From Torpedo marmorata (taxonomy: Eukaryota): a DNA stretch of 64,000 bases. The DNA lies in the NCBI GenBank assembly GCA_977017645.1, contig OZ360229.1, forward strand, positions 108,934,001 to 108,998,000, written 5' to 3'. The translations under genes were made by a program, and so were the position numbers. Below the pieces are notes generated by a model. That model saw only the letters and a program-made list of their open reading frames with translations. It was not told the origin of the DNA and ran no database searches. This document shows, piece after piece, positions 3,310-64,000 of this stretch (positions are counted from its first letter, which is position 1; each line of letters begins with the position of its first letter).

Positions 3310-3575
3310 AAAACAGCACAGAAACAGGCTCTTTGGCCCTCTGACTCCATGCTGAACCATCAATGGCCCACTTACATTAATCCCATTTCATTTCCCCCAG
3401 GTTCTACAACTAATTTCTGCAGTAGGGGCAATTTACAGTGGCCAAAATCTTACCAGCCTTCATCTTTGGGATGTGGGAAGAAACCTGAACACCAATATGA
3501 AAACCATAAGACAGGAGAACTTACAAATTCTGCACAGACAGAAGTCAGTTGTAGGAAATACTCCAAATTATAGCA
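3310..3575 (-). mobile_element. Degenerate V-SINE (HE1-like)
   Basis: Antisense CR1-derived tail (acagcacagaaacaggctctttggccc) plus a V-domain-like segment (tctttgggatgtgggaagaaacctgaacacc). Confidence 0.7.
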
Positions 3576-5289
3576 CTGTGATTAAGACAAGATAATCTTT
3601 TATCTTTAACGTTGTTAAGGATAGAATTTCTCTTCCTCAAATTAATAATGGGAAAACATGAGAGAGTAAGCAGGGATCATGATTTAATATTTCGGGTGGA
3701 GGAAACCCCAAAAGGTAATATAGCACTAAACAGCCACCTTGATTTCTGCATTCCATGTGAATTAAATCAAAATCTACCCTTGCAGAGTTAGGAATGTTAT
3801 CAATTGAGCCAAAACTGGCATCAGCTACAACACACAGGGAGAGAGGCTGGTAAAGTTACTCACAGTGATATCTGCTTTTGTAAACAAAATTGGGACAAAA
3901 AGAGAGACCTCCTCAAAGGGTTCAGAAAAGGTTATACGCGAAAGAGATAAATCTAGAATATCCTTCATAATCATCTGAACCTTTATCTACTGGCCTAAAA
4001 TCGTTATTTAATGCAAAATTATGTGAACAATGTGAATTTATCCCGGTAGAGTCTTCAAGTGGTATTGCCACACAGAAAATGTTGACTGCAATTTATTCTA
4101 TTGAACTGACATGTGATGTGACATCAGATCAAGGACTGTGATGTACTAACAGGTTAATTGGGAAATAATATTCTCAATATCCTTCAGGCTGACAAAACAA
4201 CATTGTTTCTTATAAAATCCATGCTGTACCATGTGGCAGAAAAACACATTCTCATTATTCACGTTGTTGACATGAAAAAAGGAACTGGAATTAGTTAGGA
4301 TGAAGCAAGAAAGACACTCTTCAGAAAGAAATAAGTTTTAAAAAAAACATTTGGGAGTACATTGTAGTGATGAATTTAAAGGGAAATAAATCCCTGCAGT
4401 TTATACAAATTGTTCAGTTTACGATGCCATCAATACAACAGAATATTATTCATCATGTGTGCATAATCATTCCATGCCATTTGTAACCTCCTTTTGCAAA
4501 TACAACACAATCCAGGTTATCTAATATCCTGCCTGTAATATCTTCCAGACTATTATTTTGTCTTAATCATGTTATGCCACACTGTGTAATATCCCCTATA
4601 CTATTTACTATCCTGTCTGCAATACAATTCCATATACTATGTTTTACCTCTCTATCCCTGTTTTTATTTGATATTCTCTTTTGGGTTAGATTATGTTTTT
4701 TATCTGTTTTCACCAATAATAACCAAAAATACATTTGAAAACCTCCAAGTTTTAATAAAAATTAAATATTTTCCTGGCAAAGGAAAGTAGATGCATGATA
4801 TTTTATATTTCACCAGGCAGTGATGGAGTGACTCCAAAAGGCAGAAAACAATTAGAACAGTCACAACAATGGTAGTTTTGGTCGACTTTAAACATGCAGG
4901 TATTACCAATGCCATGGCTAATTCTTTGTTGAAGTCAAAAGTTGATTTATTTGTCTTAAGGTTCATCTTGTCAATTTTTTTGTCAAATTATAACTCAGTA
5001 TAAAATTACAAGCTAACCAAAGACAAAACAAAACTAACTCTAGCCCTATGTATATGATATTGTCACAATTCCTAGTAAGGATGATTAATTGTGCCACGAT
5101 TACATCTCAGTACCATATTATCAATTCATGACTGCTAACTTGCCCCTGGAAATCTACACTGACACGAATTAACAGAACGACATGGGTTTCAATGAACAAA
5201 ATCAAAATACAAGGGAATGATTATGGGATTAACATGAAGAGTAGTTTGTCATTGTTGTTACCTGGTGATCATTTCCCACACTCTCTCCT

Positions 5290-5848: not shown

Positions 5849-6128
5849 CCTCCCTAACCTTTTGCAATTCAACTTTACTACCTGCTTTGCATGGAAAGGA
5901 GATGCAAATATGAACACGCTCATGAGCAAAGCTAACCACTGATCTAGTGATGGTGGCCAGGTGCTACAGACTGCATATAGGACACGTTTGATATCTAACA
6001 GGACTGGCTTGATTGCTTGGAATTCTTCTGGTTTATTTAATTAATAAATAGAGTGGCAGTGTAGCAGAGACAGTCTTCTTGCAAAGGGATACAAGCAAAA
6101 TTGAGAGAAGAATAACTATACCTTACAG

Positions 6129-7214
6129 TAAAAACACAATGCTGGAGAAACTCAGCAGGTCAAACAGTGTACTTTATATAGCAAAGATAAAGGTACATAA
6201 CCAACGTTTCAGGCTTGAGCCCTTCATCAAGGTATGGACAAAATGTCCTTTTTGTTTTTTTGTAATTTTGTCCATACCTTGATGAAGGGATCAAGCCTAA
6301 AATGTTGGTTATGTATCTATTTGGAAGATGGCGGCGCTGCCGGAGCCACTGTAACGGCAGCGCCGCCGCTGGTGCGGACCCGTGGGGAACGAGGAGCGGA
6401 GATATAGCACACCCGCGGGGTCCAACCGCCCAGTCGACCCGTTAAAGGAGCCGATGGTAGTTTTATTTAAAATCCCGCGACCGCGGGGTCTGCGCCCAAG
6501 ATGGCAGCGCCTCTGATTGGCAGCAGCCACAAGGGGTTGCAGACTCCAGAGGAGCGGAGGACTGGCGCAGAGCACCAGAAAACAGGGAGACCATCCCCCG
6601 TTTGAGAAGGAGAAGCAGAGGAGATGACCCACAGGACGGTGACCACGGCGGTGGACCAGTGAGGGGGCTCTGCGGCTGGAAGACCAATGCATGCGGCGGG
6701 CTGCTGGCGACTCGAGGCGAGGAACCCGCGGAGGCTGTGGGCTGCTGGAGACTGCTGTCGGGAGACTCGCGCCAGGCTGCGGACTGTTGGAGGCTGGCTC
6801 GAACTGGCTGAAGGGGTACCAGGTATTGGAACCGGGATGCGAAGGGGTGCCGAAGGCACCGAAGGGTTCCTGACCGTGTCGGAGGTTCGGATCTGGAGCT
6901 CGGGTTGCCAATGGTTTGGACTGGACTCTGTGTGGCTGCGGAAGCGCTGGAGGCGAATCTACAGACACGGGGTGACTCTGGGGGGACTCTCCTTTGCTTC
7001 TCTTTTTCTGACTGTAAGAGGCGCTTCAGGCAATTTCTGCCGATGGCGAATCTGTCTGCCTTACAGCAGGCAAAAGCAATTTAGTGTAATATGACACTGT
7101 TTTATTGCATGACAAAAAATTGAATCTTGAATCTTGAATCTTTAACTTTGCTAAGTTTCTCCAGCATTGTGTTTTTACTTCAACCACGGTATCAACAGAC
7201 TTCTGTGTTTTACT
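6129..7214. mobile_element. Non-coding palindromic Penelope-derived element (two inverted 3' ends), interrupted by a nested insertion at ~6319-7140
   Basis: Left arm ~6127-6245 is the reverse complement of the right arm (6265-6318 plus 7141-7214). Both resemble the Penelope 3' tail at 49840-49990. The 14-bp direct repeat ACTATACCTTACAG occurs at 6115-6128 and 7215-7228. Confidence 0.85.
6319..7140 (+). mobile_element. Unclassified CpG-rich non-autonomous retroelement, copy 1
   Basis: Collinear with 21822-22670. Starts AAGATGGCGGCG and ends CATGACAA(A/T)AAA-(TTGAATC)n. It splits the right arm of the Penelope palindrome. Confidence 0.8.
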
Positions 7215-10654: not shown

Positions 10655-11790
10655 ATAAACTGCCACATTCTAGATGGCTTCCTCAGCCTGTGCTGCCTCA
10701 GTTAATCGTGGGTGCCACCAAGTTCTTAACAAAACATTACTCATTCCCCTCTTGCCAAGATAAGTGTCAGTATGCAAACAATCAATAAGTAAAGGCAAAA
10801 GAACATTGGGTATACAGACCTGGCCCACTGGGGTAACCCAGAGATCAGTGGACACAGAGTGGGAACACCCATGTGTCTCCCATAACAGCTTTTCATTTTC
10901 AGGGGCATCCCCCTGTAATTGTATTATCTTAGTCATGTCTGGTTTACCCTTTTCTGGTGGTGAATCGGTAGCTTGAATCACAGCTACATGATCACGTCAA
11001 AACGACATTTTGTGCCTCATGGGAGGCCAATTTAGCAGTGGCATCGGCCCACTTGCTTGCCTGCGTGACTGAGGTGTCATCCTGTAGGTGTGCCGAGCAT
11101 TTTACAATCGCCAAGTGTTTGGGTAAGAGTATAGCCTGAAGTAAATTTTTAACATATGCGGCATTCTGAATGGAACTCCCTGTAGAGGTCAAGAAACCTC
11201 GGTGAGACCACAAAGTTCCAAAGTCATGTGCTACCCCAAAGGCGTAGCGGGAATCAGTATAAATAGTTGCTTCTCTATCTGAGGCCAAAATGCAAGCACG
11301 GGTGAGAGCAAACAATTCTGCTTTCTGGGCGGATATGGGAGGTTGGAGGGCAGAAGATTCAATGGTCTGTTTGCCGTCTACAATGGCATATCCACTCAAC
11401 CGGTCCCCCCTTTCGGAGACAGACAATGTACCGTCCACATAAAAGGTGACCTCTGCTTTGGCTAAAGGTATGTCCTGTAGGTCAGGGCGGGGAGAGGTCA
11501 GGAAGTGGTTTCGGGATAGACAGTCATGGGATGGTCCTGGGAGTTCACTAGGAGGGTCTGTTAAAAATGTCGCTGGATTAATGCTTGTGGAGAAAGCAAA
11601 GGAAAGAGGAGGGTTATGAAGGAGTGCTACCTCGTAGCGATTGAGACATGTCTGGGTAAGATGTTGGGTTTGGTGAGATGTGAGAAGTGCTGTAATGGTG
11701 TGTGTGGAATAAATCACCACTGGTTGATGCAGAGTAATGTTAGCTGCAGCTGTAACAAGAGAATAAATAGCTGGTAGGACCTGAGTGCTT
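10655..11790 (-). pseudogene. pol: Endogenous retrovirus pol fragment (connection, RNase H, integrase N-terminus), class I / epsilon-like
   Basis: RNase H motifs FYVDG, SAQKAELFALTRAC, IYTDSRYAFG and RGFLTS. These are followed after a frameshift by the integrase Zn-finger start (CLHTDTYLG...WWHP). No flanking LTR seen. Confidence 0.9.
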
Positions 11791-19700: not shown

Positions 19701-21821
19701 TTATTTCAGATGTTGTTGACAAAACGAAACCAATCGATTCAATTCTACCTTACAACAAAGGCAACCCAAAATTACTCAAATCTAACATCTGTGCATCAAC
19801 CCACCTAAATGATTGACAATGTAGAACTGGGTGAAGATAATCAACCAATTTCTGGGTGAAGATATTAACCAATTTTTGGCAACCTACTTTGCAGTTTCCC
19901 TCAAGTGAGTGACCAGCCTGTCAATAAGTCTCAGATAGCTAAATGTATCAGAAGATATGTCTTTGGATTATGTAGTCTAACAATGTTTACCTGGCACCAC
20001 ACTGCAAAGCATGGTTATTTTAGGATTCACTTTTGAACAAAGTTAGAATACTAGTTGATTGAGGGGATAATTGACCTGCAAGTTTTAAAGACCAGTGAAT
20101 GTTCTCTTCATCTTTGTTTGAAGTATCTGGTTAAGACTACTTCCCTTGCCTTTAGCAGAAGGGGTGGCGGAAAAACTCTCATCATCATCTGCAAACCTTA
20201 TTACTTCACTCAAGGAACAAGGAAAATTTCAAGGGGTATCATGTTAAGCACATCACTGTTAATTATTCAACCTGCAGGCTCTTGAGGATTCCCTTTTTAT
20301 GGATTGGCTGTACCACCAAGCTGCCACCAGGTACAAATGGCTGCTATTCTTGAAAAAATAAAGGCTGCAGGTAGGTCTGTGATGTCTTAAGGCCCACAGC
20401 GAGTTCTGGCTGCTCACAACTGACATAATGGCAATTAAAGAACTGGATATTCAATTCAAGAAGCATGTATCACTTCAGGCTGCAGAAAGAATGAAGATTT
20501 GTCAATAGAAAAAAATGATTGCAAATTTGTTCAAAATCGTTATAAACTGTTAGTGATTAGTTCATGAAAAGATTACTTACATTGAAGTATATAGTTCTTT
20601 TAACTATGACAAATCATAAGAAAAAGACGTTTGCAGCAGTATCAACGTAAATGATGCAAAAGAGGCAAAGTTGAATCAATGTGTTGGCAAGAATTGTTAC
20701 TTAAAATGTTGATTCTTTCTTGGTATTAACTTCCCCTCTCCAGACAGTGTGTAGAGAGCCTTCCAAACATCACTACTGACAGCTTCAACCTTCCAACCAG
20801 CAAAATTCTCGATTTAACTTTGAACAAACTGCGCTGCAGGAGCTATTAATCTCATTCTGAGTTTGCACCAAGTTCATTTTCTTTAATGAAAAAGTACAGA
20901 TGAATGGTTAAATGAAACACTTACCCAAACAACATGAATTTCTCTATAAATAAAATTGAATTGGATCCTTGCCGTACATAAAAACACATCTGTCTCTTGC
21001 ATCCTGCACTTATTCCATTCTAAATTAAGGTAACCTCAATTTTCTCATGGACTCCTGCTGTGTGAACCACTATTTATGGTTAAAATGTTAGACTGGTTAT
21101 GTTGGATACCTGCTGCTCACAGGGTGTAATGAGACACTGAGTTCCAGTACAAAACCCAGAAAATTACTGAGAGCTGTTAGATTTTATAGGGCCCTTTGCT
21201 CTACATTAGTTAGGGTTGTTCTTATATTTAAAAGAACTATTTTTTTAGAAGGGTGAATTTTAGAAATTATGTTCAATACAGCGTTAGTACAAGGTGGTAT
21301 TTAATGTTGGGATGTTTCCTTTCACCATTTGAACCTGTGGACCAAACTAAATCAGACACTTTCTTTTAAAGGTAGATGTCAAAGGATGACATGAGTGAGG
21401 GCCAGTTTCAAGGAAGTTCTTGATCACTCCAGAACACAAAACCATTTAAAATTTAGGACAATTTCCACTTCATCTGAGATACCTAAATAGTATCTGTATT
21501 AAACAAGGAAACATCAATCATCTTCATGCAACTGTTTATAGTTTTGAGTGAAAGAGTACAATATTAGAGATGGCCACAAATCAACATCCAAGCTGGCATT
21601 GAAAAATATACCAGTATTTCCTTTTCTGGAACGTGCGCACAGAATGCGAACCTACTGGAAGTGATGTTGAGATTTGGAACTGATTTTAGGTGCACAGGGT
21701 CATTCTTGTAAATCTGACAAACTGAATTTTGGTACTGTCATTTTAAACAAAATCATTTATCAGACAATAGGAAACGTTGGAAAAAAAAGTAAATTTGCTA
21801 TTCTTTTCATTCTGAGAAGGT

Positions 21822-22670
21822 GAGCGATGGCGGCGCTGCCGGAGCCGCTGTAGCGGCAGCGCTGCCGCTGGTGCGGACCCGCGGGGAGCGTGGGAGCGGA
21901 GATACAGTGCTCCCGCGGGGTCCATCCACCCAGTCGACTGCCGTCGGTTCCGCACGGGCTTTGAACGGCCCGTTAAAGGAGCCGATGGTGGTTTTATTTG
22001 AGATCCCATGACCACGGGGTCTGCGCCCAAGATGGCAGCGCCTATTAATTGGCAGCAGCCATGAGGGGCTGCAGACTCTGGGGAAGCAGGGGACTGGAGC
22101 AGGGCACCAGTGGACGGGAAGATCACCCCCGTCTGAGAAGGAGAAGCGGAGGAGACGACCCACGGGACGGTGAGCACAGCGGCGGACCGGTGAGGGGCTC
22201 TGAGGCTGAAGTACCAGTGCATGTGGCAGGCTGCTGGCGACTCGAGGCGAGGAACCCGCGGAGGCTGTGGGCTGCTGGAGACTGCTGTCGGGGGACTCAC
22301 GACGGGCTGCAGACTGCTGGAGGTTGGCTCGATCTGGCTGGAGGAGCACCAGGTATCGGAACCGGGATGTGAGGGGGTGCCAAGGGCGACCTGACCGTGT
22401 TGGAGGTTCGGATCTGGAGCTCGGGATGCCGATCGTTTGGACTGGACTCTGTGTGGCTGCGGAAGCTGCGGAAGTGCTGGAGGCGAATCTATGGACGCTC
22501 GGTGTCTCTGGGGGGACTCTCTTTTGCTTCTCTTTCTCTGACTGTAAGGAATGTTAGAGGCGCTTAGGCAATTTCTGCCGATGGCAAATCTGTCTGCCTT
22601 GCAGCAGGCAAAAAGAAATTTTGTGGTATATGACACTGTCTTATTGCTATGACAATAAATTGAATCTTGA
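21822..22670 (+). mobile_element. Unclassified CpG-rich non-autonomous retroelement, copy 2
   Basis: Collinear with 6319-7140 apart from small indels. Ends TATGACAATAAATTGAATCTTGAA. Confidence 0.8.
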
Positions 22671-23304
22671 AGTTCTAGCCTTGAGATAAAAAATAGTTTT
22701 TTATGCAAAGTTTCATTGACTTATGATTTAGGGGCTGCATTTATGGAAATTGTGTTGTGTGATGATCTCAAATGCAACAACAGGGACATTCATTTAAATG
22801 TCCTTTTGTTGCCATGAAGATTGTAATGAATGAAATTAATGCAATTCAAGATTTTTAGCAAATGAAAACAAATTAAGTGCAATTAAGTGACAAAATTCAA
22901 CATTCAAAGATAACATGATAAGAACCAAAAAATACAATATCCTGAAATAGTTGCAGAACGAACTCGTCAATGAAGAGTTATACAAAAACTTCCTGTTTAA
23001 ATCAAAGGTTAAATTTTATATCATTCTGGAACACAGTTTTAAATTGCATTAAATAGCATTATTAAAAGGGCATTATATATTAGATTTTGTTTCAAGATTT
23101 GCCCAATACTTTAAGCAGCTGACTAATTCAGAAGGCTAAGAATTGAGTGATAATTTTGATGTGCTACTTTTTGACCAAGGTGCTAATGGAAAGCTGCTCT
23201 ACATATTATGCCTCCTTTTCTGATAACTGGAGGGGAGAGGGAGTGGAAAAGAAGGCTTAACTGGTTTGGAAGAGTGAATAAACTAAAACATCTAAAGGGC
23301 GAAA

Positions 23305-40660: not shown

Positions 40661-42325
40661 ATCAGAATCAGAATCAGAATTTATTGTCATGAACAAATCA
40701 TGAAATTCGGTGTTTTGCGGCAGCATCATTGTGCAATTAACATTCATATTAACCATCTAACGACATTACTATAAAAAATTATAAACAATAGTGCACGAAA
40801 AGTAAGGCAGTGTCTTTGGTTCATTGATTATTCAGGAATCTGATGGCAGCGGGGAAGAAGCTGTCCTTGTGCCGTTGAGTGCTCGTCTTTAGGCTCCTGT
40901 ACCTTTTTCCCGATAGAAGCAGAGTGAAGAGGGCATGGCCTGGGTGGTGGGGGTCTTTGAGGATAGAGGCTGCTTTTTTAAGACACCACCTCATGTAGAT
41001 GTCCTCGATGGAGTGAGGTTTGGTGCCTGTGATGTCACAGGCCGAGTTAAAAACTCTCTGGAGTTTACTCTTGTCCTGGGAGTTGGCAGCTCCATACCAG
41101 GCAGTGATGCAACCAGCCTGAATGCTCTCCACGGTACACCTGTAGAAGTTTACGAGAGTCTTTGGTGACATACCGAATCTCCGCAGACTCCTCACAAAGT
41201 ATAGCCGCTGACGAGCCTTCTTTGTGATTGCATCAACGTGGATGCTCCAGGACAGATCCTCGGAGATGTTGACACCCAGGAATTTGAAGTTCTTGACCCT
41301 CTCCACAACTGAGCCCTCGATGAGGACTGGGTCGTGTTCCTCATCCCCTGACTTCCTCCTGAAGTCCACAATCATCTCCTTGGTTTTGCTGACGTTGAGC
41401 TCAAGGTTGTTGCCATTACACCATTCAACGAGCTGATCTATCTCCCTCCTGTACGCTTCCTCATTGCCGTTTGTGATTCTGCCGACAACTATGGTGTCAT
41501 CGGCAAACTTGTAGTTGGCATTGGAATTGTGCCTAGCCACACAGTCATGGGCGTATAACGAGTAGAGCAGTGGACTAAGCACGCATCCTTGGGGTGCGCC
41601 TATGTTGATAATCAGTGAGGAGGAGACATTGTTTCCAATTCGTACTGACTGTGGTCTTCCAATGAGAAAGTCAAGGATCCAGTTGCAGAGTGGGGTACAG
41701 AGGCCAAGAGTTTGTAGCTTCTTGACGAGCACTGAGGGAATAATGGTATTGAAGGCTGAGCTGTAGTCGATGAAGAGCAGCCGTATGTATGAATTGCTGT
41801 TTTCGAGGTGATCCAGAGCTGAGTGGAGAGCCAGCGATATTGCATCTGCTGTGGAGCGATTGTGGCGATAGGCGAATTGCAGTGGGTCCAGATCTTTGCT
41901 TAGGTATGTGTTAATTCTGGCCATGACCAGCCTCTCAAAGCATTTCATCACAGTAGAAGTTAGTGCTACTGGGCGGTAGTCGTTGAGGCAGCCCACACTA
42001 CTATTCTTGGGTACCGGGAATGATTGATGCCCTTTTGAAGCAGGTGGGAACCTCTGACTGCCGCAATGAGAGGTTGAAAATGTCCGTGAACACTCCGGCT
42101 AGTTGGTTGGCACAGATTTTCAAAACCCTGCCAGGTACGCCGTCAGGGCCTGATGCCTTGCGAGGGTTCACCCTCTTGAATGATATTCTGACGTCGCCCT
42201 CAGAGACAGATATCACAGGGTCCTCAGCCTTTTCAGGGATTCTAGAAGGCACTGTTTTGTTCTTCTTCTCAAAGCGGGCATAGAAGGTGTTCAGCTCATC
42301 GTGTAGTGAAGCATCACAGCCATCA
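40661..42325 (-). mobile_element. Young 5'-truncated Rex1/Babar LINE
   Basis: RT ORFs 42001-42345 and 40821-41996 are separated by one frameshift, with a (TTCTGA)n tail at 40661-40680. Confidence 0.93.
40821..41996 (-). CDS. Rex1/Babar reverse transcriptase (truncated, frameshifted from 42001-42345)
   Basis: Motifs [50 protein letters not shown] and FKFLGV. Confidence 0.9.
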
Positions 42326-43450
42326 AAAGTGTTCAATGTAATCAATGTTTATGCATTGATTTGGGGGGTTAATTTAAAGTATTTTTTACCATTCTGCTTG
42401 GAGGTATTTAGATTGGCTATATAGCAAAATATATATAGGTTGCAGGGTGAATTCTAAGTGCTGATAAACCAGACTGAAATTTACTACAAAAAGTCTATTG
42501 TTGTACAACCATTGAATAATTACTCCAACAAAACTGTGATCTGAACGCCCACTGTGCTAATTAGCATGGTTCAAATTAATTTCTGTGTGAGATACGATTA
42601 AATGGCTAATGTATTTTCCAGCAACACTCTCACTCCTAGCAACATGAAATTCCAACCAGTAGATTTTTCCCCAGTAATCTAATTTTCATGATTCAAAATG
42701 TTGTGGATCTTGGATATTTCCATGTCAAGTACAATGAATGACCGGTGCATTTTATATCTGTAGGGATATAATCCAATTTAAGCATCCACCTAACTTGGTA
42801 TTCATTCTTTTGACAATCAGAATATCCACATGAGAACACAATGTGTGTTGTTCAAATGCTCCACTATCACAGACCTTTCCTTTGCCTCTCCACCACTCTC
42901 CTTCCTTCACAAGTCAAAATTTGTTTGTGTTCTAGTTCTTTTTAGTTTTGGTAAAAAGTCATCGATCGGAAATGTTAACCCTTCATTGATGTTGCCTGGT
43001 GCAAGGAGAAATGCACAAATTTTCAATTAAAAAAAGAAATCTTTGAATATTTTCAGACAAAGTGATAAAAATCAACAATCATGGCAAAAAAAAAATTCAA
43101 AGATATCAAATATAATATCCAAAAGTAAACACGAAAATCTGTAGACACCGTGGTTAGAGTAAAAAACACAAAAGCTGGAGAACTCAGCAGGTCAAACAGT
43201 GTCTTTTATGTAGCAAAGGTAGAAATACATAACCGACGTTTCAGGCTTGAGCCCTTCAAAGTATGAGAAAATGCCGGCAGATGTCCGAACAAAGGAGTGA
43301 GGGGGGAAGGGGGGTGGCAAAGGCAGGAGATAATAGGTGGAGAAAGGAGGGAGGGGACAGTAGCAAAGAGGGGGAGGAGGGATGGCTGGGTAGCTGGAGA
43401 AACACAGGAAGGACAGGTGAGGGGGGAGGGGAAGGGAACAACAAGCAGGT

Positions 43451-45631
43451 TTAGTGGAAAGCAGAAAAGTCAATGTTAATTCCATCTGGCTGGAGAGTGC
43501 CGAGACGGAATATGAGATGTTGTTCCTCCAGTTTGCGGGTAGTCTGGGTGGGATAGTACATGAGGCCATGGACAGACATGTGAGTGTGGGAGTGTGACCC
43601 AGAATTGAAATGGTTGGCCACTGGGAGGTCGCTGTTGTTGCGAACCGAGCGGAGGTGCTGAGCGAAGCGATCTCCCAATCTACGACCGGTCTCTCCAATG
43701 TATAGAAAGCCACAAAGGGAGCACCGGATGCAGTAAATAAGTCCTCTGGATGTACAAGTGAAGTGTTGCTTCACTTGGAAGGCCTGTTTGGGGCGCTGGA
43801 CCGTGGTGAGGGGGGAGGTGTGGGCGCAGGTGTTGCACCTCCTGCGGGCACAGGGGAAGGTTCCGGGGGTGCGATGGGTGGGGAGGGACGAGTGCACGAG
43901 TGAATCACGGAGGGAGCGGTCCCTACGGAAGGCCGAGAGGGGAGGAGAAGGAAAAATGTGTCTGGTGGTGGGATCCTGCAGCAAGTGCCGGAAATTCCGG
44001 CGGATAATGTGTTGGATGCGGAGGCTGGTGGGGTGGTAGGTGAGGATGAGGGGTATTCTATGTTTGTTGTGTCTGGGGGCAGAGGGGGCCAGGGCAGATG
44101 AGTGGGAAATGGAGGAGATGCGGGTGAGGGCTGAGTTGATGGTGGTGGAGGGGAAGCCACGTTTGTGGAAAAAGGCAGACAGTTCAGAAGATCTGGACTG
44201 GAAGACCTCATCTTGGGAACAGATGCGGCGGAGGCGGAGAAATTGAGAGAAGGGGATGGAGTCCTTGCAGGGGACAGGGTGTGAGGAAGTGTAGTCCAGA
44301 TAGTTGTGGGAGTTGGAGGGTTTGTAGTAAATGTCGGTGGAAAGCTTGTCTCCCGAGATGGAGACAGAGAGATCCAGGAAGGGGAGAGTGTTATCGGAGA
44401 TGGACCAGGTGAGTTTGAGATCGTGGTGAAAGTTGGATGCGAAGTGGATGAAGTTGACAAGCTCATCGTGGGTGCATGAGGCAGCCCCGATGTAGTCGTC
44501 GATATACCGGAGGAAGAGATGAGGGGTCTTGACTGTGTAGGCTTGCAGCATGCATTGCTCCACAAAGCCCACAAACAGGCAGGCGTAGCTGGGACCCATG
44601 CGGGTACCCATGGCTACTCCTTTGATTTGGAGGAAGTGGGATGAGTTGAAGGAGAAGTTATTGAGAGTAAGGACAAGTTCTGCCAGGCGGAGGAGGGTGG
44701 TGGTAGAGGGTGACTGGTCGGGTCTTTGGTCCAGGAAGAAGCGAAGTGCTTTCAGACCTTCTGTGTGGGGGATAGAGGTACAAAGCGATTGGACATCCAT
44801 GGTGAAGATGATGCGTTCCGGTTCAGGGAATCTGAAGTCATTGAGGAGATGGAGGGCATGTGAGGTGTCGCGGATGTAGGTGGGGAGGGATTGGACCAGG
44901 GGAGAAAAGATGGAGTCCAGGTAAGATGAAACTCGTTCGGTGGGGCAGGAGCAGGCAGAAACAATGGGTCTGCCCGGATGGTTGGGTTTGTGTATCTTGG
45001 GTAGAAGGTAGAAACGGGCAGTGCGGGGGTGGGGGAGAATGAGGTTGGTGGCCATGGAGGGGAGGTGACTGTAGGTGATGAGGTCGGAGATGGTGTTGGA
45101 GACAGTGGCTTGATGTGCTGTGGTGGGATTCTGTGGGAGGGGTCGGTAGGAGGAGGTGTCTGAGAGTTGTCGACTGACCTCGGCAAGGTAGAGGTCAGTG
45201 CGCCAGACCACAACCGCACCGCCCTTGTCTGCGGGTTTGATGGTGAGGTTGGGATTGTTGTGGAGAGAGTGGAGGGCAGAGCGTTCTGAGGAGGTGAGGT
45301 TGGAATACGAGAGGGGGGTGGTGAAGTTGAGACGGTTGATGTCTCGGCGGCAGTTGGAAATAAAAAGGTCCAGAGCGGGCAGCTGGCCAGGGCGGGGTGT
45401 CCAGGAAGAGGAAGAAGGCTTGAAGCGGGAGAAAGGGTCTTGGGTGGGGGGTGGTGAATCACGGTCATGGAAGTGAGCACGGAGGCGGAGGCGACGGAAG
45501 AAGAGTTCGGCATCATGGCGTGCGCGGAACTCGTTGAGGTGTGGGCGGAGGGGGACGAAGGTGAGGCCTCTACTGAGGACGGAGCGCTCCGTCTCAGAGA
45601 GGGGAAGGTCGGAGGGGATAGTAAACACCAA
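43451..45631 (-). CDS. Penelope-like RT + Cys-rich linker + GIY-YIG endonuclease (probably 5'-truncated)
   Basis: Motifs IKPADKGG, TMDVQSL, QIKGVAMGTRMGPSYA, RYIDD, FPCARRRCNTC linker and LIYCIRCSLCGFLYIGETGR. The ORF is uninterrupted. Confidence 0.92.
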   Translation of the reverse strand: MVFTIPSDLPLSETERSVLSRGLTFVPLRPHLNEFRARHDAELFFRRLRLRAHFHDRDSPPPTQDPFSRFKPSSSSWTPRPGQLPALDLFISNCRRDINRLNFTTPLSYSNLTSSERSALHSLHNNPNLTIKPADKGGAVVVWRTDLYLAEVSRQLSDTSSYRPLPQNPTTAHQATVSNTISDLITYSHLPSMATNLILPHPRTARFYLLPKIHKPNHPGRPIVSACSCPTERVSSYLDSIFSPLVQSLPTYIRDTSHALHLLNDFRFPEPERIIFTMDVQSLCTSIPHTEGLKALRFFLDQRPDQSPSTTTLLRLAELVLTLNNFSFNSSHFLQIKGVAMGTRMGPSYACLFVGFVEQCMLQAYTVKTPHLFLRYIDDYIGAASCTHDELVNFIHFASNFHHDLKLTWSISDNTLPFLDLSVSISGDKLSTDIYYKPSNSHNYLDYTSSHPVPCKDSIPFSQFLRLRRICSQDEVFQSRSSELSAFFHKRGFPSTTINSALTRISSISHSSALAPSAPRHNKHRIPLILTYHPTSLRIQHIIRRNFRHLLQDPTTRHIFPSPPLSAFRRDRSLRDSLVHSSLPTHRTPGTFPCARRRCNTCAHTSPLTTVQRPKQAFQVKQHFTCTSRGLIYCIRCSLCGFLYIGETGRRLGDRFAQHLRSVRNNSDLPVANHFNSGSHSHTHMSVHGLMYYPTQTTRKLEEQHLIFRLGTLQPDGINIDFSAFH

Positions 45632-45841
45632 GCAGGGGTTAGAGTGGGGATCGGTGTTGTGGAGGGTGTTGGGGGGAGGGGGAGGGTTGGGGAGGTCAGA
45701 GGGGGGAGGTAGAGGGTGGGGGAGGTTGGAGGGAGGGGGAGGGGGGTCGGAGGGGGGAGGTGGGGGGTAGGGGAGGTGGGAGGGTGGGAGAGGGGGGTAG
45801 GGAGGGTAGCCAGAGAGAGGGGGGGATGGAGGGAAGGGAAG

Positions 45842-47410
45842 GCCCGTTTCTACCTTCTACCCAAGATACACAAACCCAACCAACCGGGCAGACCCATTGT
45901 TTCTGCCTGCTTCTGCCCCACCGAACGAGTTTCATCTTACCTTGACTCCATCTTTTCTCCCCTGGTCCAATCCCTCCCCACCTACATCCGCGACACCTCA
46001 CATGCCCTCCATCTCCTCAATGACTTCAGATTCCCTGAACCGGACCGCATCATCTTCACCATGGATGTCCAATCCCTTTATACCTCCATCCCCCACACAG
46101 AAGGTCTGAAAGCACTTCGCTTCTTCCTGGACCAAAGACCCGACCAGTCACCCTCTACCACCACCCTCCTCCGCCTGGCAGAACTTGTCCTTACTCTCAA
46201 TAACTTCTCCTTCAACTCATCCCACTTCCTCCAAATCAAAGGAGTAGCCATGGGTACCCGCATGGGTCCCAGCTACGCCTGCCTGTTTGTGGGCTTTGTG
46301 GAGCAATGCATGCTGCAAGCCTACACAGGCAAGACCCCTCATCTCTTCCTCCGGTATATCGACGACTACATCGGGGCTGCCTCATGCACCCACGATGAGC
46401 TTGTCAACTTCATCCACTTCGCATCCAACTTTCACCACAATCTCAAACTCACCTGGTCCATCTCCGATAACACTCTCCCCTTCCTGGATCTCTCTGTCTC
46501 CATCTCGGGAGACAAGCTTTCCACCGACATTTACTACAAACCCTCCAACTCCCACAACTATCTGGACTACACATCCTCACACCCTGTCCCCTGCAAGGAC
46601 TCCATCCCCTTCTCTCAATTTCTCCGCCTCCGCCGCATCTGTTCCCAAGATGATGTGTTCCACTCCAGATCTTCTGAAATGTCTGCCTTTTTCCACAAAC
46701 GTGGCTTCCCCTCCACCACCATCAACTCAGCCCTCACCCGCATCTCCTCCATTTCCCGCTCATCTGCCCTGGCCCCCTCTGCCCCCAGACACAACAAACA
46801 TAGAATACCCCTCATCCTCACCTACCACCCCACCAGCCTCCGCATCCAACACATTATCCGCCGGAATTTCCGGCACTTGCTGCAGGATCCCACCACCAGA
46901 CACATTTTTCCTTCTCCTCCCCTCTCGGCCTTCCGTAGGGACCGCTCCCTCCGTGATTCACTCGTGCACTCGTCCCTCCCCACCCATCGCACCCCCGGAA
47001 CCTTCCCCTGTGCCCGCAGGAGGTGCAACACCTGCGCCCACACCTCCCCCCTCACCACGGTCCAGGGCCCCAAACAGGCCTTCCAAGTGAAGCAACACTT
47101 CACTTGTACATCCAGAGGACTTATTTACTGCATCCGGTGCTCCCTTTGTGGCTTTCTATACATTGGAGAGACCGGTCGTAGATTGGGAGATCGCTTCGCT
47201 CAGCACCTCCGCTCGGTTCGCAACAACAGCGACCTCCCAGTGGCCAACCATTTCAATTCTGGGTCACACTCCCACACTCACATGTCTGTCCATGGCCTCA
47301 TGTACTATCCCACCCAGACTACCCGCAAACTGGAGGAACAACATCTCATATTCCGTCTCGGCACTCTCCAGCCAGATGGAATTAACATTGACTTTTCTGC
47401 TTTCCACTAA
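45842..47410 (+). CDS. Penelope-like RT + GIY-YIG, 5'-truncated second arm
   Basis: Same protein from ARFYLLPKIHK onward, with no stops. The first ~42 aa of the listed 564-aa ORF come from the G-rich junction. Confidence 0.9.
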   Translation, partial: ARFYLLPKIHKPNQPGRPIVSACFCPTERVSSYLDSIFSPLVQSLPTYIRDTSHALHLLNDFRFPEPDRIIFTMDVQSLYTSIPHTEGLKALRFFLDQRPDQSPSTTTLLRLAELVLTLNNFSFNSSHFLQIKGVAMGTRMGPSYACLFVGFVEQCMLQAYTGKTPHLFLRYIDDYIGAASCTHDELVNFIHFASNFHHNLKLTWSISDNTLPFLDLSVSISGDKLSTDIYYKPSNSHNYLDYTSSHPVPCKDSIPFSQFLRLRRICSQDDVFHSRSSEMSAFFHKRGFPSTTINSALTRISSISRSSALAPSAPRHNKHRIPLILTYHPTSLRIQHIIRRNFRHLLQDPTTRHIFPSPPLSAFRRDRSLRDSLVHSSLPTHRTPGTFPCARRRCNTCAHTSPLTTVQGPKQAFQVKQHFTCTSRGLIYCIRCSLCGFLYIGETGRRLGDRFAQHLRSVRNNSDLPVANHFNSGSHSHTHMSVHGLMYYPTQTTRKLEEQHLIFRLGTLQPDGINIDFSAFH

Positions 47411-47595
47411 ACCTGCTTGTTGTTCCCTTCCCCTCCCTCCTCACCTGTCCTTCCTGTGTTTCTCCAGCTACCCAGCCATCCCTCCTCCCCCTCTTTGCTA
47501 CTGTCCCCTCCCTCCTTTCTCCACCTATTATCTCCTGCCTTTGCCACCCCCCTTCCCCCCTCACTCCTTTGTTCGGACATCTGCCGGCATTTTCT

Positions 47596-47636
47596 CATAC
47601 TTTGAAGAAGGGCTCAAGCCTGAAACGTCGGTTATG
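47596..47636 (+). ncRNA. Minimal type I hammerhead ribozyme motif of Penelope
   Basis: catac-tTTGAAGA-aGGGCTcaAGCCT-GAAACGTC-ggttatg contains the core, stem II, palindromic ACGT stem III and stem I. Confidence 0.6.
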
Positions 47637-48510
47637 TATTTCTACCTTTGCTACATAAAAGACACTGTTTGACCTGCTGAGTTCTCCAGCTTTTGTGTTT
47701 TTAAATATAATATCCATGTTAACATTCAAAGGAAAAATTGTGATAATATTAAGGGCTGAAAATTTATAGGAGCAGTGAATAATAATAAAAGGCAGGAAAT
47801 GTTATTTGTTCAGAATGATCAAAATGGCCTTTATATTAAGGACATAACAGCAAGAAAAATTATTGACCAGAAGTGGTTTTATTTTCCAGTTTAGTCGTTT
47901 GCACTTGACTGATCATTTGAGTTTGACCGTGATTCTCACCCCTCTTAAAACCATTGATAATTTGATAATATTTACTGCCATTTATCGATGACTGAATGGT
48001 TCATTCTGCTACCGACTGCACATTGCTGACATCAATACCACACTGTGGCTTAAGAATAAGATCCACGTTAATTCACTTAAAAATGATTTATTTTTCACAA
48101 AGCAGGGAAAAGTACCAGCAAAGTAGAATTTAATGGAAAATATTCTCTTTTCACCATTTTTTTCATCATTTTCAATGTTTCTTTCTTTAAATTGTTGTTT
48201 TTGTGGACCATTGTTCCAATCTGACCACCATCTTGAGCGAAAAGCTCAATTATACATGTGTAAACCTCAACCTGTCATGTTATTAGGCATGTCAATAATG
48301 TGGCACAACATGAACAAGCAAAGTTCACCTTCTGTCAATGTACTTTTAGTAGGAATTGCAGTCTAATGATTGGGACAGGATCTCAAAGTTAATTTCCCAC
48401 TGCCCAGTGGAAGAAGATCATGTTTGAGCCACGAGTACTCAATTTGAAATCAGATAACTCTCCACTAACTGTAAAATGAATCTTGTTTCTACCTTAATCA
48501 AAATGGTTCA

Positions 48511-49990
48511 GTCCCAGCTACGCCTGCCTGTTTGTGGGCTTTGTGGAGCAATCCATGCTGCAAGCCTGCACAGGCAAGACCCCTCATCTCTTCCTCCGTT
48601 ATATCGACGACTACATCGGGGCTGCCTCATGCACCTGCGATGAGCTTGTCAACTTCATCCACTTCGTATCCAACTTCCACCACGATCTCAAACTCACCTG
48701 GTCCATCTCCGATAACACTCTCCCCTTCCTGTATCTCTCTGTCTCCATCTCGGGAGACAAGCTTTCCACCGACATTTACTACAAACCCTCCAACTCCCAC
48801 GACTATCTGGACTACACTTCCTCACACCCTGTCCCCTGCAAGGATTCCATCCCCTTCTCTCAATTTCTCCGTCTCCGCCGCATCTGTTCCCAAGATGAGG
48901 TCTTCCAGTCCAGATCTTCTGAAATGTCTGCCTTCTTCCACAAACATGGCTTCCCCTCCACCACCATCAACTCAGCCCTCATCCCGCATCTCCTCCATTT
49001 CCCGCTCATCTGCCCTGGCCCCCTCTGCCCCCAGACGCAACAAACATAGAATTCCCCCTCATCCTCACCTACCACCCCACCAGCCTCCGCATCCAACACA
49101 TTATCCGCCAGAATTTCCGGCACTTACTATAGGATCCCACCACCAGACACATTTTCCTTCTCCTCCCCTCTCGGCCTTCCGTAGTGACTGCTCCCTCTGC
49201 GATTCACTCGTGCACTCATCCCTCCCCACCCATTGCACCCCCGGCACCTTCCCCTGTGCCTGCAGGAGGTGCAACACCTACGCCCACACCTCCCCCCTCA
49301 CCATGGTCCAGGGCCCCAAACAGGCCTTCCAAGTGAAACTACACTTCACTTGTACATCCAGAGAACTTACTTACTGCATCCGGTGCTCCCTTTGTGGCTT
49401 TTTCTACATCGGAGAGACCGGTCGTAGATTCGGAGACCGCTTTGCTGAGCACCTCCTCTCCGTCTGCAACAACAGCGACCTCCCAATAGCCAACCATTTC
49501 AATTCCGGGTCACACTCCCACACTCACATGTCTGTCCATGGCCTTATGTACTATCCCACCCAGACTACCCGCAAATTGGAGGAACAACATCTCATTTTCC
49601 GTCTCGGCACTCTCCAGCCAGATGGCATTAACATTGACTTTTCTGCTTTCCACTAAACCTGCTTGTCGTTCCCTTCCCCTCCCCCCTCACCTGTCCTTCC
49701 TGTTTTTCTTCACCTACCCAGCCATCCCTCCTCCCCCTCTTTGCTGCTGTCCCCTCCCTCCTTTCTCCACCTATCATCTCCTGCCTTTGCCACCCCCCTT
49801 CCCCCCTCACTCTTTTGTTCGGACGCCTGCCGGCATTTTCTCATACCTTGATGAAGGGCTCAAGCCCGAAACGTCGGTTATGTATTTCTACCTTTGCTAC
49901 ATAAAAGACACTGTTTGACCTGCTGAGTTTCTCCAGCATTTGTGTTTTTTACTTCAACCACGGTGTCTACAGATTTTCGTGTTTTACTTT
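48511..49990 (+). mobile_element. Third, older 5'-truncated Penelope copy (monomer, frameshifted)
   Basis: Same family as 45842-47702, with frameshifts near 48980-49150. Direct repeat TGGTTCAGT at 48504-48512 and 49991-49999. Confidence 0.92.
49842..49882 (+). ncRNA. Minimal type I hammerhead ribozyme motif of Penelope
   Basis: CATACC-TTGATGA-A-GGGCTcaAGCCC-GAAACGTC-GGTTATG. Predicted cleavage after GUC at 49875. Confidence 0.7.
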
Positions 49991-58685: not shown

Positions 58686-60421
58686 ATGCCGAAAAAAAGA
58701 GTTAAAGTTCCTAAAATACCAAAACTTCCTCGACTCAAAGCTATGGCAGAGAGCTAAGAAGCAGAGCTGACACAGGAAGAATTTGGACTTGAACAAGATA
58801 CTCCTTTGACGTTGGGTATGGCTTCTAAAATGATTTCTAAACAGTCTGTGGACATAAATAATGCATTAAAAATGTGGGTCAAAGAGATTGGGAAGAAGTT
58901 AGACCCAGTTTTGGAATCAATACCTCACTTTGAACAACTACTTTGGAATTAGATTGGTCTGTTCTTAATGAATGGCTGGATAACCTCGTAAAACAAAATG
59001 AGACACCGACTGCTGATAATAACAAGTTAAAACAACATGCAATAAATATGGAGAGTGTTATGGACCATGACTGACCATTTGGACTGCGGACGGTCAGCAG
59101 GAAGGATGAAGTCTTTTGGAGTACACAATGGGACCAGGTACTGAAAGAGTTAACTTGCCCAGGACGGGGTGTACTCAGAGAGAGAGAGAGAGAGACACCG
59201 AGAGAGAGACAGGCTGTGGAAAGATACTTTGTTGCACTTTTGCAAAAGCAGATGCAAACCTCTGCAAAAAGCATTCAGATTCAGTTGTTTGGAGTTGCAA
59301 AGGCTGGAGAACACAGCAAATCCAGGCTTGTGCATCACAGGAGAAAAGGCTGGGAGAATAGCAAATGGCCTCCTGTATCAGCAAAATCCTGATTTAAATC
59401 AACTTTCGTGGAGAACAGGCGTGAGATCAGTGAGACCGGCTGTGAGATCCAAGTATACGCTTCAATCAAAACTGATTTGGAGTCACAATCGTCGAGTACC
59501 TACTAAAAGGGAAAGTCATCAGAGAAGAAAAGCAGGCCAAGCATTCGTAAGCTTAAACAGTCATTGTCTCTCTCTCCAAAGTTCATTAAGAAGTCCTTCG
59601 TGCCAGCACACAGAGCTGAATTTAGACCCTGAACACGGAGAGTGATTTTTGTGGACTGTATTTTTGGGACTGACTTATTTTTATGACTGACCTGGGGGTT
59701 TTGGGGAAGGTTTTCCATTTTTACATGAGGGTTGGGCACAGACTGTAATGGTCTGGGCTTTACACACACACTCTTTAGATAAGAATAGTGTTTATAGACG
59801 TTTATAGTGGGGTTAATTGTTAAGAAATTATATGTTTAATTGTCTTTAATAAATATAAATTTCAATTTTACCCCTTTTGCATTATGTCTTCTGTCGTTGC
59901 TGGTTTCAATTTGTAACAAGAGTCAGAGTCACAAAAATAATATCTGTATTATAGGTTTGAAGGAAGGGATTGAGAAGGACAAACCGCCATTAAAATTCTT
60001 CACAAGCTTACTTACAGACCTTTTTGGGGAAGAAGCTATTGGAAAAGACTTTGTGCTTGAAAGAGCACATTGTTCCCTGTCAGCTAAAGATAATTCAGGA
60101 AACCCTAGATCTGTCATTATTTGGTTTCACCATTTTCAGAAGAAAGAAACAATTTTGAGGTTGGCCCGCTCAAAAAAAGATTTAACTTATCAAGGAGCAC
60201 GCGTTCGTATCCTAGAAGATTATTGCCTGGAAATTGTTGCACTCCGCAAAGTCTACCATGAAGTAATGTCGGAGCAATACAAGAAAGGTTTTAAACCTAC
60301 CCCTCTCTATCCGGCGAGACTCAGAATAATGCATGATACTCATAAGAATTTTCTGAATTCACCAGAACCATGGGATTTTCTTAAAATGAAGACCTTGGGA
60401 TCGTCGACTGCTGCTTTATGA
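58686..60421 (+). pseudogene. L1 ORF1 (RNA-binding protein), disrupted
   Basis: Removing the LTR restores INMESQSHKNNICIIGLKEGIE...LERAH...PRSVII, the L1 ORF1 RRM/CTD signature. Confidence 0.85.
59056..59918 (+). mobile_element. Solo LTR, copy 2, inserted in L1 ORF1
   Basis: TGTTA...TAACA termini and a perfect 4-bp TSD AGAG (59052-59055, 59919-59922). Confidence 0.92.
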
Positions 60422-61234
60422 TGAACAAATTGAACGGTTGAATGTGGAAACAGTTCTTTATTTTTTATTTTTTCTTGCTGACTAGTTCAATGATAACATT
60501 ATCTAATATAAGGGAATATATTGAGAAATAGTTTTGGATCAAGCACTAAATGTCTTTAATTAATATGATCTTAGAGAGTCGGGATATAAGTAACAGTCCG
60601 GTCTTTTGTAATTGTTAAATTTTGTCTTCTCTGTGCATGCACCAGACATTCTCTATAGCTCATGTGAGCTTTATTCGATATATTGGTTTATAACTATAGT
60701 AAAGGGGACTGTTGGAAATGAGGGCTATTGATCGTCAGTAGGTTAGTTTTAATTTGGTTTTTTTCAGTTTATCAATTATGTATAGAATTTAACTATTTAA
60801 ACTAAAGTTTAACAGGATATTTTACGGTATAACTGGCGATTGTTGAAGGATCATGCACATTGGAAAACTGAAATGCTATTTAGACCTCACTTGTGTGCTA
60901 TCAGCGTTTTGGCTAACTTTCTTATCTTTATTATGGGGATGAATTATATTATACCATTTGATTAATTAGGAGCAGTAAAATCAACAGTGGAGCCAAAGAG
61001 GGCTGTATTAGATTTTTATGAGCTGGTCACTTTCTCTTTCAGTGACCCTCAAGTAAGGGAGGGGTGGGGGGGGACCTTTCTGGGTTTATATGGAAGAAGG
61101 TTGTATCTAATAATTTATTCTCTTGTGTTTTGTAATGTGGTGGAGGTTCGGGACTGTGGCCTCGGGGGTGAAGAGGGAGTATACACCAGTGCTTTCATCT
61201 ATTTTGATATATTTTAAAGTACTTGGTTAAAGAT

Positions 61235-64000
61235 AGCACCTATTAAAATTATCTCATGGAACGTGAAGGGGCTTAATGGACCTATAAAGCGTCGAAGGAA
61301 TTTAGCACATATTAAACATTTAAAAGCAGATATTATGTTTTTCCAAGAAACACATATCAAAAGGGCAGATAAAGACAGACCAATGTTTAAATGGATGGGA
61401 CAATTTTATCACTCAGCCTCTGAAGCCAAAATTAGGGGAGTCACCATGTTAATACAACCAAACGTACCATTTATACTACATAATAGTATAATAGATAAAA
61501 TGGGGCGCTATATTATCCTTACTGGGACATTACAGAATAAACCGATGGTTTTAGCCAATATTTATGCTCCAAATGGGGATGACCCAGTATTTTTTGAAAG
61601 AGTTTTTGATCTTCTAACGGATCTTTCCCAATACTCACTAATTTTAGGTGGAGATTTTAATTGTTGTTTGAACACAATTTTAGACTGTTCTTCAAAAAAA
61701 AAGGCTAATCTTTCAAAATCGGCTTTAACAATACGCTCTTTATTATCTCATATGGGAGGGTCTGATGTATGGAGATTTTTGAACCCTACTTCTAGAGATT
61801 ACTTTTTTCTCAAACATTCATAAAGTCTATACCAGGATTGATTATTTTTTAATTGACAACCAGTTAATTAACTTGGTTAAAGCTTGCGATTATCAAAGTA
61901 TAGTTATTTCAGATCATGCTCCAGTCTCTTTAAGTTTGGAATTCCCAAGTACTCTAAGTATTAAAAAAACAATGGCGGCTTAATACCCTATTACTTAATA
62001 ATAAAGAGTTTTTGAATTTTTTAGAGAACCAGATCCAATTCTTCTTTGAGGTCAACTCAACCCCAGATGTATCAAATTTAGTGGTTAGAGATACTATGAA
62101 AGCTGACTTACGTGGCCAAATCATTTCTTATGCAGCCAATAAAAACAAAAGGACCAGGGAAGAAAGATTAGATTTGATTAATCAAATTAAACAAATTGAT
62201 TTACAATTTGACCAAAATAGTGACTCAAATCTATTTAGAAGAAGATTTGAACTAAAATCTAAATGTGACCTTCTTTCCACATGCCCAATTGAACAACGGA
62301 TTTTAAGAACTAAAGGTCAATTTTATATCCATGGAGAGAAGTCCGGTAAACTGCTGGCTAATCAATTGAAAGCTACGTCGGTTAGTAAGCAAATTAACAA
62401 GATACGTCTTCCCGATGGTACTATTACTACTGATCATTCCAAAATAAACAATGTTTTCAAGAATTTTTATACTAATTTATATTCTTCTGAATTTAATAAC
62501 CAATACGATTTAATGAATGAATTTTTAGACCATTTGAATATACCGATAATTTCTCGGGAAAATAAAGAACTTCTAGAAGCTCCAATATCACAAGAAGAAT
62601 TGCATAAAGCAGTATTCTCATTACAATCAAATAAAGCTCTGGGGCTGGACGGTTATCCTGTGGAGTTTTACAAAACATTTTCCAAACAACTAGTCCCACA
62701 CTTAAACTTGGTATTAAATGAATCTTTCTGAGAAGGAAAATTACCCCCTTCTTTTAACGAAGCAGCTATTTTGGTGATCTTAAAAAAAGGCAAAGACTCA
62801 GAGGAATGTGCATCTTACAGGCCGATTTCCTTACTCAATGTGGATGTTAAGATTTTATCTAAAGTTTTTGGAGAATGTCTTATCAAGTATAATAAATTTG
62901 GATCAAACAGGTTTCATTAAAAATCGACATTCTTATCATAATATCCACAAACTACTGAATATCATGTATACACCCTCTACTCATAATAATGAATGCATTT
63001 TATCCTTAGACGCTGAAAAAGCGTTCGACAGAGTAGAATGGGAATATTTATTTGCCACCTTAGTAAAATTTAATTTTGGCCCAGTTTTTATACATTGGAT
63101 AAAACTTTTATATACATCTCCAATGGCCTCAATTTGTACCAATTCGCAGCAATCCAAGCTTTCTAAATTATATCGAGGCACGAGACAGGGCTCCCCTCTA
63201 AGCCCATTGCTTTTTGACTTAGTACTGGAACCACTTGCTATTGCTTTGCGGGGAAATCAAGAATTTACTGCTTATATTAAACATTTGTTGGAAATATGGA
63301 CACAGGTAGATAAAGAAATAGGTGGGAAATGATTAATTTCTTTAAATATGCCATTATATCAAAATCCTCTTTTACCATTTACTATTAATAATCAGTTATT
63401 GAAAGCATGGTTTCAAAAAGGAATTAAGAATTTTAAAGATTGTTTTGAGGCTGGAAGATTTGTTACGTTTCAAAGATTGAAGGAAAATTTTAATGTATTA
63501 GATAATACATGGTTAGCTTATTATCAAGTTAAAGCTTTTTTGATTGAGAAACTAGGAGAAGATTTGATTGCTCCAAGACATAATGAGTTAGAATTATTAA
63601 TAACTAAAGCAAATGTTAATAAGTTTATTTCTCAAATGTATAAATTATTTCAGAGAAAAATGCCTAAAGTAGGATTACATAAATCAAGATTAAAATGGGA
63701 ATTAGATTTAAATGTTAATATAGCTGAAAATCACTGGAAATATTTATGTAAATTAAGTATGACTAAAGTTATTAATGTTAGATATAGATTAGTTCAATAT
63801 AATTTTTTTCATCAACTATATTTAACACCAAAAAAATTAAAGAAATTTAATCCGACATTGTCGGATTTGTGTTTTAGATGTAAGAATGAAGTAGGTTCTT
63901 TTGTTCATTCTACATGGTTATGTCCAAAAATTCAAGATTTTTGGTTGAAAGTTAAGAATTTTTTAGATAGAGTTTTTAATGTTATGTTTCCAATGGACCC
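61235..64000 (+). pseudogene. L1 ORF2 (endonuclease + RT), frameshifted and internally deleted
   Basis: Motifs SWNVKGLN, FFQETH, NIYAPN, GGDFN, SDHAP, SLDAEKAFDRVEW and GTRQGSPLSPLLF. Near 63270 the sequence jumps to the C-terminal region, skipping YADD. Confidence 0.9.

Follow-up and report, generated by a model that had tools for sequence, protein, structure and literature searches.

The 64,000-nt stretch of the Torpedo marmorata genome analysed here (assembly GCA_977017645.1, contig OZ360229.1, forward-strand positions 108,934,001 to 108,998,000; hereafter the window, whose own numbering is used) contains a unit in which two copies of one Penelope-like element (PLE) lie head to head within a single 14-bp target-site duplication (TSD). 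This two-armed structure inside one TSD is real. It is ordinary for its family, and the arrangement has already been described in PMC3846280 and PMC8557442. What is new is a number: every one of 31 such units carried exactly one tail, a strict rule that suggests coupled use of two start sites of the reverse transcriptase (RT). The studied locus is ordinary, a non-coding remnant from a young family, and its value lies in the sample. The unit comprises the following features, with unit positions numbered on a natural 3914-nt unit, L050.

43108-43121, no strand: left TSD copy, AAATATAATATCCA, 14 bp, matching 47703-47716 exactly
43122-45842, minus strand: left arm, 5'-truncated and tailed, unit positions 1189-3910
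43122-43158, minus strand: tail of about 37 nt, present in the left arm only
45842, no strand: head-to-head joint with a 1-nt overlap and no palindrome; the 5' ends of the arms are 824 nt apart in the unit
45842-47702, plus strand: right arm, 5'-truncated and tail-less, unit positions 2013-3873, beginning inside the RT region
47703-47716, no strand: right TSD copy, the second copy of the 14-mer AAATATAATATCCA

An earlier note, made from the letters of the window, had described two head-to-head copies of one PLE bracketed by one 14-bp TSD, and both statements were borne out. AAATATAATATCCA occurred only twice in the window when both strands were searched, and the match was not extendable beyond 14 nt. 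Shuffled pairs of flanks gave no match of at least 10 nt in 194 trials, and 14 bp was the modal TSD length among the head-to-head units of the family. The minus arm and the plus arm that follows it were 98.9% identical over an overlap of 1861 nt, with 17 substitutions and one 3-nt deletion. Each flank was single-copy in the assembly of 6.2 billion bases. The note had also given each arm a 3' tail of its own, which proved wrong for the right arm: this arm ended in ...TGTGTTTTT at unit position 3873, about 37 nt before the end of the left arm at 3910.

The genome was searched with the last 373 nt of the right arm, which returned 1199 candidates, 40 of them scored. A total of 78 stretches of 10 kb were fetched, namely all 38 non-self matches of this search and the best 20 of 39 from each of two further searches. 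Because these loci were picked by likeness to the 43108-47716 unit, the sample is biased toward copies resembling it. In these stretches, 30 further head-to-head units were identified, 31 with the studied one. Among the 38 copies chosen for their 3' end, 17 belonged to such units, a share to be read with the fact that a unit with two 3' ends is picked twice as often; with this count and a layout already published, the double-ended insertion is not the unusual event that it had first seemed. A strict end rule gave 29 head-to-head units, counting bystanders and the one in the window, and TSDs of 11-18 nt (mode 14) flanked 28 of them; a relaxed rule gave 31 units, of which 29 had a TSD of 11-18 nt. 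No target-site motif was seen by eye among 29 oriented sites.

The 3' ends of all copies examined fell at two places only, about 35-37 nt apart, and a TTTT(C)GTGTTT motif preceded both end classes. All head-to-head units (31 of 31) combined a tailed arm with a tail-less one, where about half would be expected by chance; three of the tail-less ends were eroded by a further 17-46 nt. Among 61 non-inverted units, 35 were tailed and 26 tail-less, and independent choice of ends at these frequencies would give 31 of 31 with a probability of 2e-10. The tailed arm was the shorter one in 21 of the 31 units and the longer one in 10. Tail-less single copies with a TSD were also present (L033, L047, L083, L084 and L100), and the inner end is therefore a priming site in its own right. 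The 5' ends of the two arms were mostly hundreds of nucleotides apart, and the junctions of the 31 units lacked palindromes. The joints showed an overlap of 0-6 nt in 22 of 31 units (mean 2.2, compared with 0.58 by chance) and a filler of 1-56 nt in the other 9 of 31.

Several units had further structure. At the joint or close to it, short stretches of the element formed head-to-tail series of two to four repeats in L131:1319-1793, L032:4564-4684, L048:2746-2829 and L095:3649-4199, with a repeat of about 129 nt in L131, as if RT had restarted several times. In L032 and L044, the tail-less arm covered a complete 3.9-kb unit and went on into the tailed end of the unit upstream of it, and the template RNA was therefore longer than one unit. 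Partial tandems of the pseudo-long terminal repeat (pLTR) type were seen in L036, L050, L032 and L044.

The origin of the arms was examined at 44 non-CpG positions that split the lineages of the family. Arms of one unit agreed in 583 of 598 informative comparisons (2.5% discordant), compared with 41% discordance for random partners, a null that is inflated by the lineage mix in the sample and by waves of activity. Because of this inflation, rare variants were counted as well: a variant found in at most one other unit was common to both arms in 10 of the 17 pairs with at least 400 nt of overlap, for which the null means were 0.00-0.14. In a tree of 91 copies, seven of eight pairs were sister tips, with supports of 0.10-0.93, the exception being the studied unit. 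On these comparisons, arm agreement, shared rare variants and the tree together place the template of both arms at one source locus, as either one RNA or sibling RNAs, which would be indistinguishable by sequence. For the studied unit, both arms carried all subfamily markers outside a short patch in the left arm, shared variants against the subfamily majority at unit positions 2098, 2479 and 3714, were sisters upstream of the patch (support 0.76) and lay 0.0025 apart downstream. Two other units are the best candidates for a second RNA: in L048:2827-3721, the tailed arm had another lineage's letters over its final 160 nt, and in L075:3321-3498 the same was true of most of the short tail-less arm, over an overlap of 166 nt.

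The patch is the one stretch of the left arm with the letters of an older lineage.

44182-44288, minus strand: older-lineage patch of the left arm, marked at unit positions 2744, 2828, 2834 and 2850; outer bounds about 44055-44428

It spans a minimum of 91-107 nt and a maximum of about 370 nt and holds a cluster of residue differences between the arms, QDEVFQSRSSEL / QDDVFHSRSSEM. The earlier note had counted about a dozen differing residues including this cluster; 11 amino-acid differences were read from the translations. Four nucleotide changes underlie the cluster; the one at 46654 is a rare letter of the right arm, and the other three are older-lineage states in the left arm, as is 2744. 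An exact match to 106 nt of the patch (44189-44294) was found at 16 other places in the genome. All 16 were surrounded by older-lineage markers, none had the subfamily markers of the studied unit and none had the letter at 2850. Among non-inverted subfamily copies, 4 of 21 had similar patches (one of the four had been selected because it resembled the patch); among arms, 3 of 28 had them. The patch probably derives from a second copy, either by gene conversion after the insertion or by a short-lived switch of template. The idea of RNA templates from two lineages survives for this short stretch, which matches an older lineage, and fails for the whole arms, which belong to one lineage by their markers and three shared variants. 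The opposite expectation, that all arm differences are private random mutations, fits a second cluster (44769-44798) and not the three or four left-arm letters of the first cluster and its patch.

Across the overlap, the left arm had 12 changes of its own against the subfamily majority and the right arm five; one of the 12 turns SLY into SLC within the first RT motif. The second cluster is private, its sole match in the genome being itself, and a genome-wide search for a donor copy found none. Of the 17 differences between the arms, 11 were transversions, more than most of the other pairs showed. Two segments of the element, at 44805-44836 and 46647-46678 in the window, are weakly complementary, and the left change at 44816 and the right change at 46654 each raise their likeness, possibly by templating and possibly by chance. 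A third copy of the family, of the older lineage (about 94-95% identity), lies on the plus strand at 48511-49984; it is tailed, 5'-truncated and frameshifted, with a 9-nt candidate TSD that is inside the chance range. This neighbour was rejected as donor of the patch because three further letters that it carries, at 2771, 2798 and 2861, are missing from the left arm.

In our judgement, these units probably arose by priming from both nicks of one target site: each nick would use a different start site on RNA of a single locus, and the cDNAs would stop independently and join by microhomology. The PLE protein would cut both target strands about 14 nt apart, a distance taken from the TSDs, and each 3'-OH would prime reverse transcription on element RNA. 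One 3'-OH would start at the outer site and give a tail, and the other would start about 37 nt further upstream, at the inner site, and give none. The two cDNAs would end independently and be joined via a few complementary bases or a short filler, and fill-in would follow. Beyond the TSD, the top-strand 3'-OH continues into antisense sequence from the outer end and the bottom-strand 3'-OH into that from the inner end, an end geometry, as read from the letters, that fits two target-primed cDNAs. Priming of both strands of one staggered cut and joining of the cDNAs had been proposed in the earlier note and gained support from the TSDs of 29 of 31 units, the independent 5' breakpoints, the microhomology at the junctions and the tail on the shorter arm in 21 of 31. 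Its placing of the priming at the RNA 3' end has to be revised, two internal start sites being more likely in view of PMC11167929. The Poseidon protein studied there cuts and extends both strands in vitro, starts at two internal sites between which the tail lies, and is a predicted dimer.

A tighter form of this double priming may be considered, tentatively: a coupled target-primed reaction in which a dimer would hold both cut ends together with the two start motifs of a single RNA 3' region, and the same RNA would be copied twice, from one start site each time, the outer cDNA displacing the inner one. If this were true, the one-tail rule would be obligatory and the arms would be identical at birth. 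An occasional second-lineage RNA in the particle might then be switched onto, producing patches such as those in the left arm, L048 and L075. How PLEs make inverted insertions is stated to be unsettled in PMC8557442 and PMC11167929. The census sets three constraints on any answer: each inverted unit has a single tail, this tail is mostly on the shorter arm, and the two arms share one source locus. Should a random census bear them out, the two RT start sites would be tied to the two DNA ends and simple fold-back would be ruled out.

A number of observations weigh against double priming from one source. The sample was chosen by likeness to the studied unit and is not random, and the in vitro data concern a Poseidon element, for which PMC11167929 found the start site not to differ between strands. 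The studied unit taken alone, with its tail on the longer arm and a 1-nt overlap at the joint, fits fold-back equally well. Its arms were not sisters in the tree of positions 2700-3865, where they fell in a six-tip clade, and it was the most discordant pair, at 4 of 40 informative sites. The shared variant at 2479, counted as rare, occurred at 61 places genome-wide and on other backgrounds in the 30 loci read; it was dropped as a source-lineage marker as being recurrent, with 61 exact matches and 0 of 30 read loci in the subfamily. L075, discordant at three of five informative sites, and L048, with its 3'-terminal patch, point to a second lineage. Public contigs from four runs were compared with the left flank plus the unit's first 380 nt; the closest of them, X1, had 13 differing letters over about 730 nt and ended at 43077, 30 nt before the TSD, and neither an empty allele nor a spanning read was seen among them.

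The main rival is single priming, in which the first cDNA would turn back on itself, or pass through a free hairpin, and serve as template for DNA synthesis, with uneven trimming by the endonuclease (EN) leaving one tail. Such a route would account for arms of the same source and for junction microhomology, and the longer tailed arm of the studied unit permits it; the tail has been ascribed to EN-mediated resolution of an intermediate (PMC8557442), and self-priming has been proposed (PMC3846280). However, the shorter arm was tailed and the longer one tail-less in 21 of 31 units, and the shorter arm is therefore not a fold-back copy of a target-anchored longer arm, although these counts do not bear on a free hairpin cut at both ends. 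The distances between arm 5' ends and the missing junction palindromes, which are reported in PMC3846280, also speak against this route, as does the correspondence between the tail ends and the RT start sites found in vitro (PMC11167929). We regard the free hairpin trimmed by the endonuclease as unlikely. That two RNAs of different lineage supplied one arm each of the studied unit is more doubtful still, and for whole arms this is largely refuted. In its favour, the left-arm letters at 2744, 2828, 2834, 2850 and 2258 match other lineages, the 106 nt of the patch are exact in 16 older copies, and L075 resembles a two-lineage pair over its 166-nt overlap. Set against these are the complete subfamily markers of both arms outside the patch and the shared variants at 2098, 2479 and 3714, the sister relation upstream and closeness downstream, the private nature of the second cluster, and the patches in 4 of 21 non-inverted subfamily copies.

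Two further explanations concern the assembly. Two separate insertions flanked by a chance 14-mer, or a fold-back artefact of assembly, would agree with the lack of spanning reads and of an empty site, and inverted repeats are hard for assemblies (PMC8557442). Yet the arms differ by 17 substitutions, one indel, 824 nt at the 5' end and a tail, the flanks are unique, 30 like units, 28 with a TSD of their own, are spread over many contigs, and young copies showed few deletions, nine in 65.5 kb. We consider this highly improbable. A real unit whose older-lineage patch is a polishing error, with reads of a paralogue written into the assembly, has somewhat more to commend it, being about as unlikely as the trimmed hairpin: the minimal patch of about 107 nt is of short-read size, and exact donors exist elsewhere for 106 nt. 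On the other side, no donor also had the letter at 2850, the assembly looks accurate in this family, and similar patches recur in other copies.

The coding content agrees with an endonuclease-bearing (EN+) PLE, in which a single ORF encodes RT and, at the C-terminal end, a GIY-YIG endonuclease. The left arm has an open frame with a proline-rich region, DKG, RT, a C-x4-CxxC linker and GIY-YIG, which stops at 43451-43453; the frame of the right arm stops at 47408-47410. Both frames had been called stop-free, which holds as far as they reach, but both are 5'-truncated and lack a start codon, which in the complete unit lies near position 37. A Pfam search of the right arm gave RVT_1 (E 9.8e-6) followed by GIY-YIG (E 1.9e-4), both under the curated cut-offs, and that of the left arm gave GIY-YIG (E 0.0016) at a threshold of E 0.1, with no match at a threshold of E 0.001. 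DKG and YIDD motifs are present in the translation, and both arms have the linker CARRRCNTC, of the CX2-5CxxC type. By eye, both translations also have two cysteines between GIY and YIG, GLIYCIRCSLCGFLYIGE, then histidines. EN+ PLEs have a CCHH motif with two cysteines between GIY and YIG, and a CX2-5CxxC linker before the endonuclease marks Neptune/Nematis and is absent in Penelope/Poseidon (PMC8557442). The family is an EN+ PLE that by its motifs is of the Neptune/Nematis type, as defined in PMC8557442.

EN+ PLEs have a hammerhead ribozyme motif in the pLTR, and one possible motif of this kind was noticed in the 3' untranslated region.

47600-47629, plus strand: putative hammerhead-like motif with UGAnGA...GAAAC visible

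Rfam gave no match to it at E up to 5, and it folded no better than shuffles (z about +0.6). The 3-nt deletion of the left arm falls inside this motif, at 43257/43258. The two 3' end regions, examined for a tail stem-loop, likewise folded no better than shuffles. Within the Neptune/Nematis type, the Torpedo family would be Neptune rather than Nematis, to judge from the distribution of these clades in vertebrates.

Other repeats surround the unit. A LINE (long interspersed nuclear element) reverse transcriptase remnant with a 425-aa open frame lies on the minus strand at 40821-42348 (RVT_1, E 1.5e-32). Broken frames on the plus strand at 59840-63332 presumably correspond to ORF1, endonuclease and RT of an L1/Tx1-type LINE, and a 265-aa frame on the minus strand at 10992-11789 to the RNase H of a retrovirus-like pol. 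Another repeat has two proline-rich open stretches that resemble each other, on the minus strand at 6309-7080 and 21743-22720, and the first adjoins a 123-nt piece (6123-6245) that is 86% like the 3' end of the PLE family.

A literature search of mostly open-access main texts found no paper stating strict tail complementarity or a coupling of the two start sites, or testing arm origin, and passages of PMC8969392 and of the retrozyme preprint 10.64898/2026.07.22.740005 held nothing further on mechanism. The closest known structures are inverted-pLTR insertions of EN+ PLEs, such as the Pen2a_Av and Pen2_Av derivatives of Adineta vaga (PMC3846280; scheme in Fig. 2 of PMC8557442). The insert typical of these elements stands next to an inverted pLTR, is enclosed by one TSD and has its tail on one of the inverted pLTRs, with head-to-head as the commonest polarity (PMC3846280). 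Shared with the Torpedo unit are an inverted 5'-truncated copy at the 5' end, one TSD around the whole unit (9-10 bp there, mode 14 in the Torpedo family), a tail of 30-40 bp on one end only and the usual head-to-head order. In contrast, neither arm of the Torpedo unit is full length, it has no direct pLTR and no palindrome at the joint, and its inverted arm measures 1.9 kb. Poseidon PAc of Anolis carolinensis (PMC11167929) likewise has two start sites bounding the tail and AT-rich targets, and both strands are cut and extended. It belongs to another clade, and its start sites lie in an AC-rich stem-loop, whereas the Torpedo family ends after TTTT(C)GTGTTT; in the main text the two sites are not linked to the inverted structure. 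The inverted form is the commonest in Penelope of Drosophila virilis (PMC2377424, Fig. 1C), and the tandem-plus-inverted layout of that element recurs in L032 and L044. This element belongs to the Penelope/Poseidon clade, which lacks the linker zinc finger that the Torpedo family has. In L1 twin priming, both strands of a staggered cut also prime cDNA, and the products are joined by microhomology within one TSD. The second priming there is internal, however, and yields non-overlapping arms and one 3' end, whereas the Torpedo unit has two 3' ends, with both arms starting from the 3' end region and overlapping by 1861 nt.

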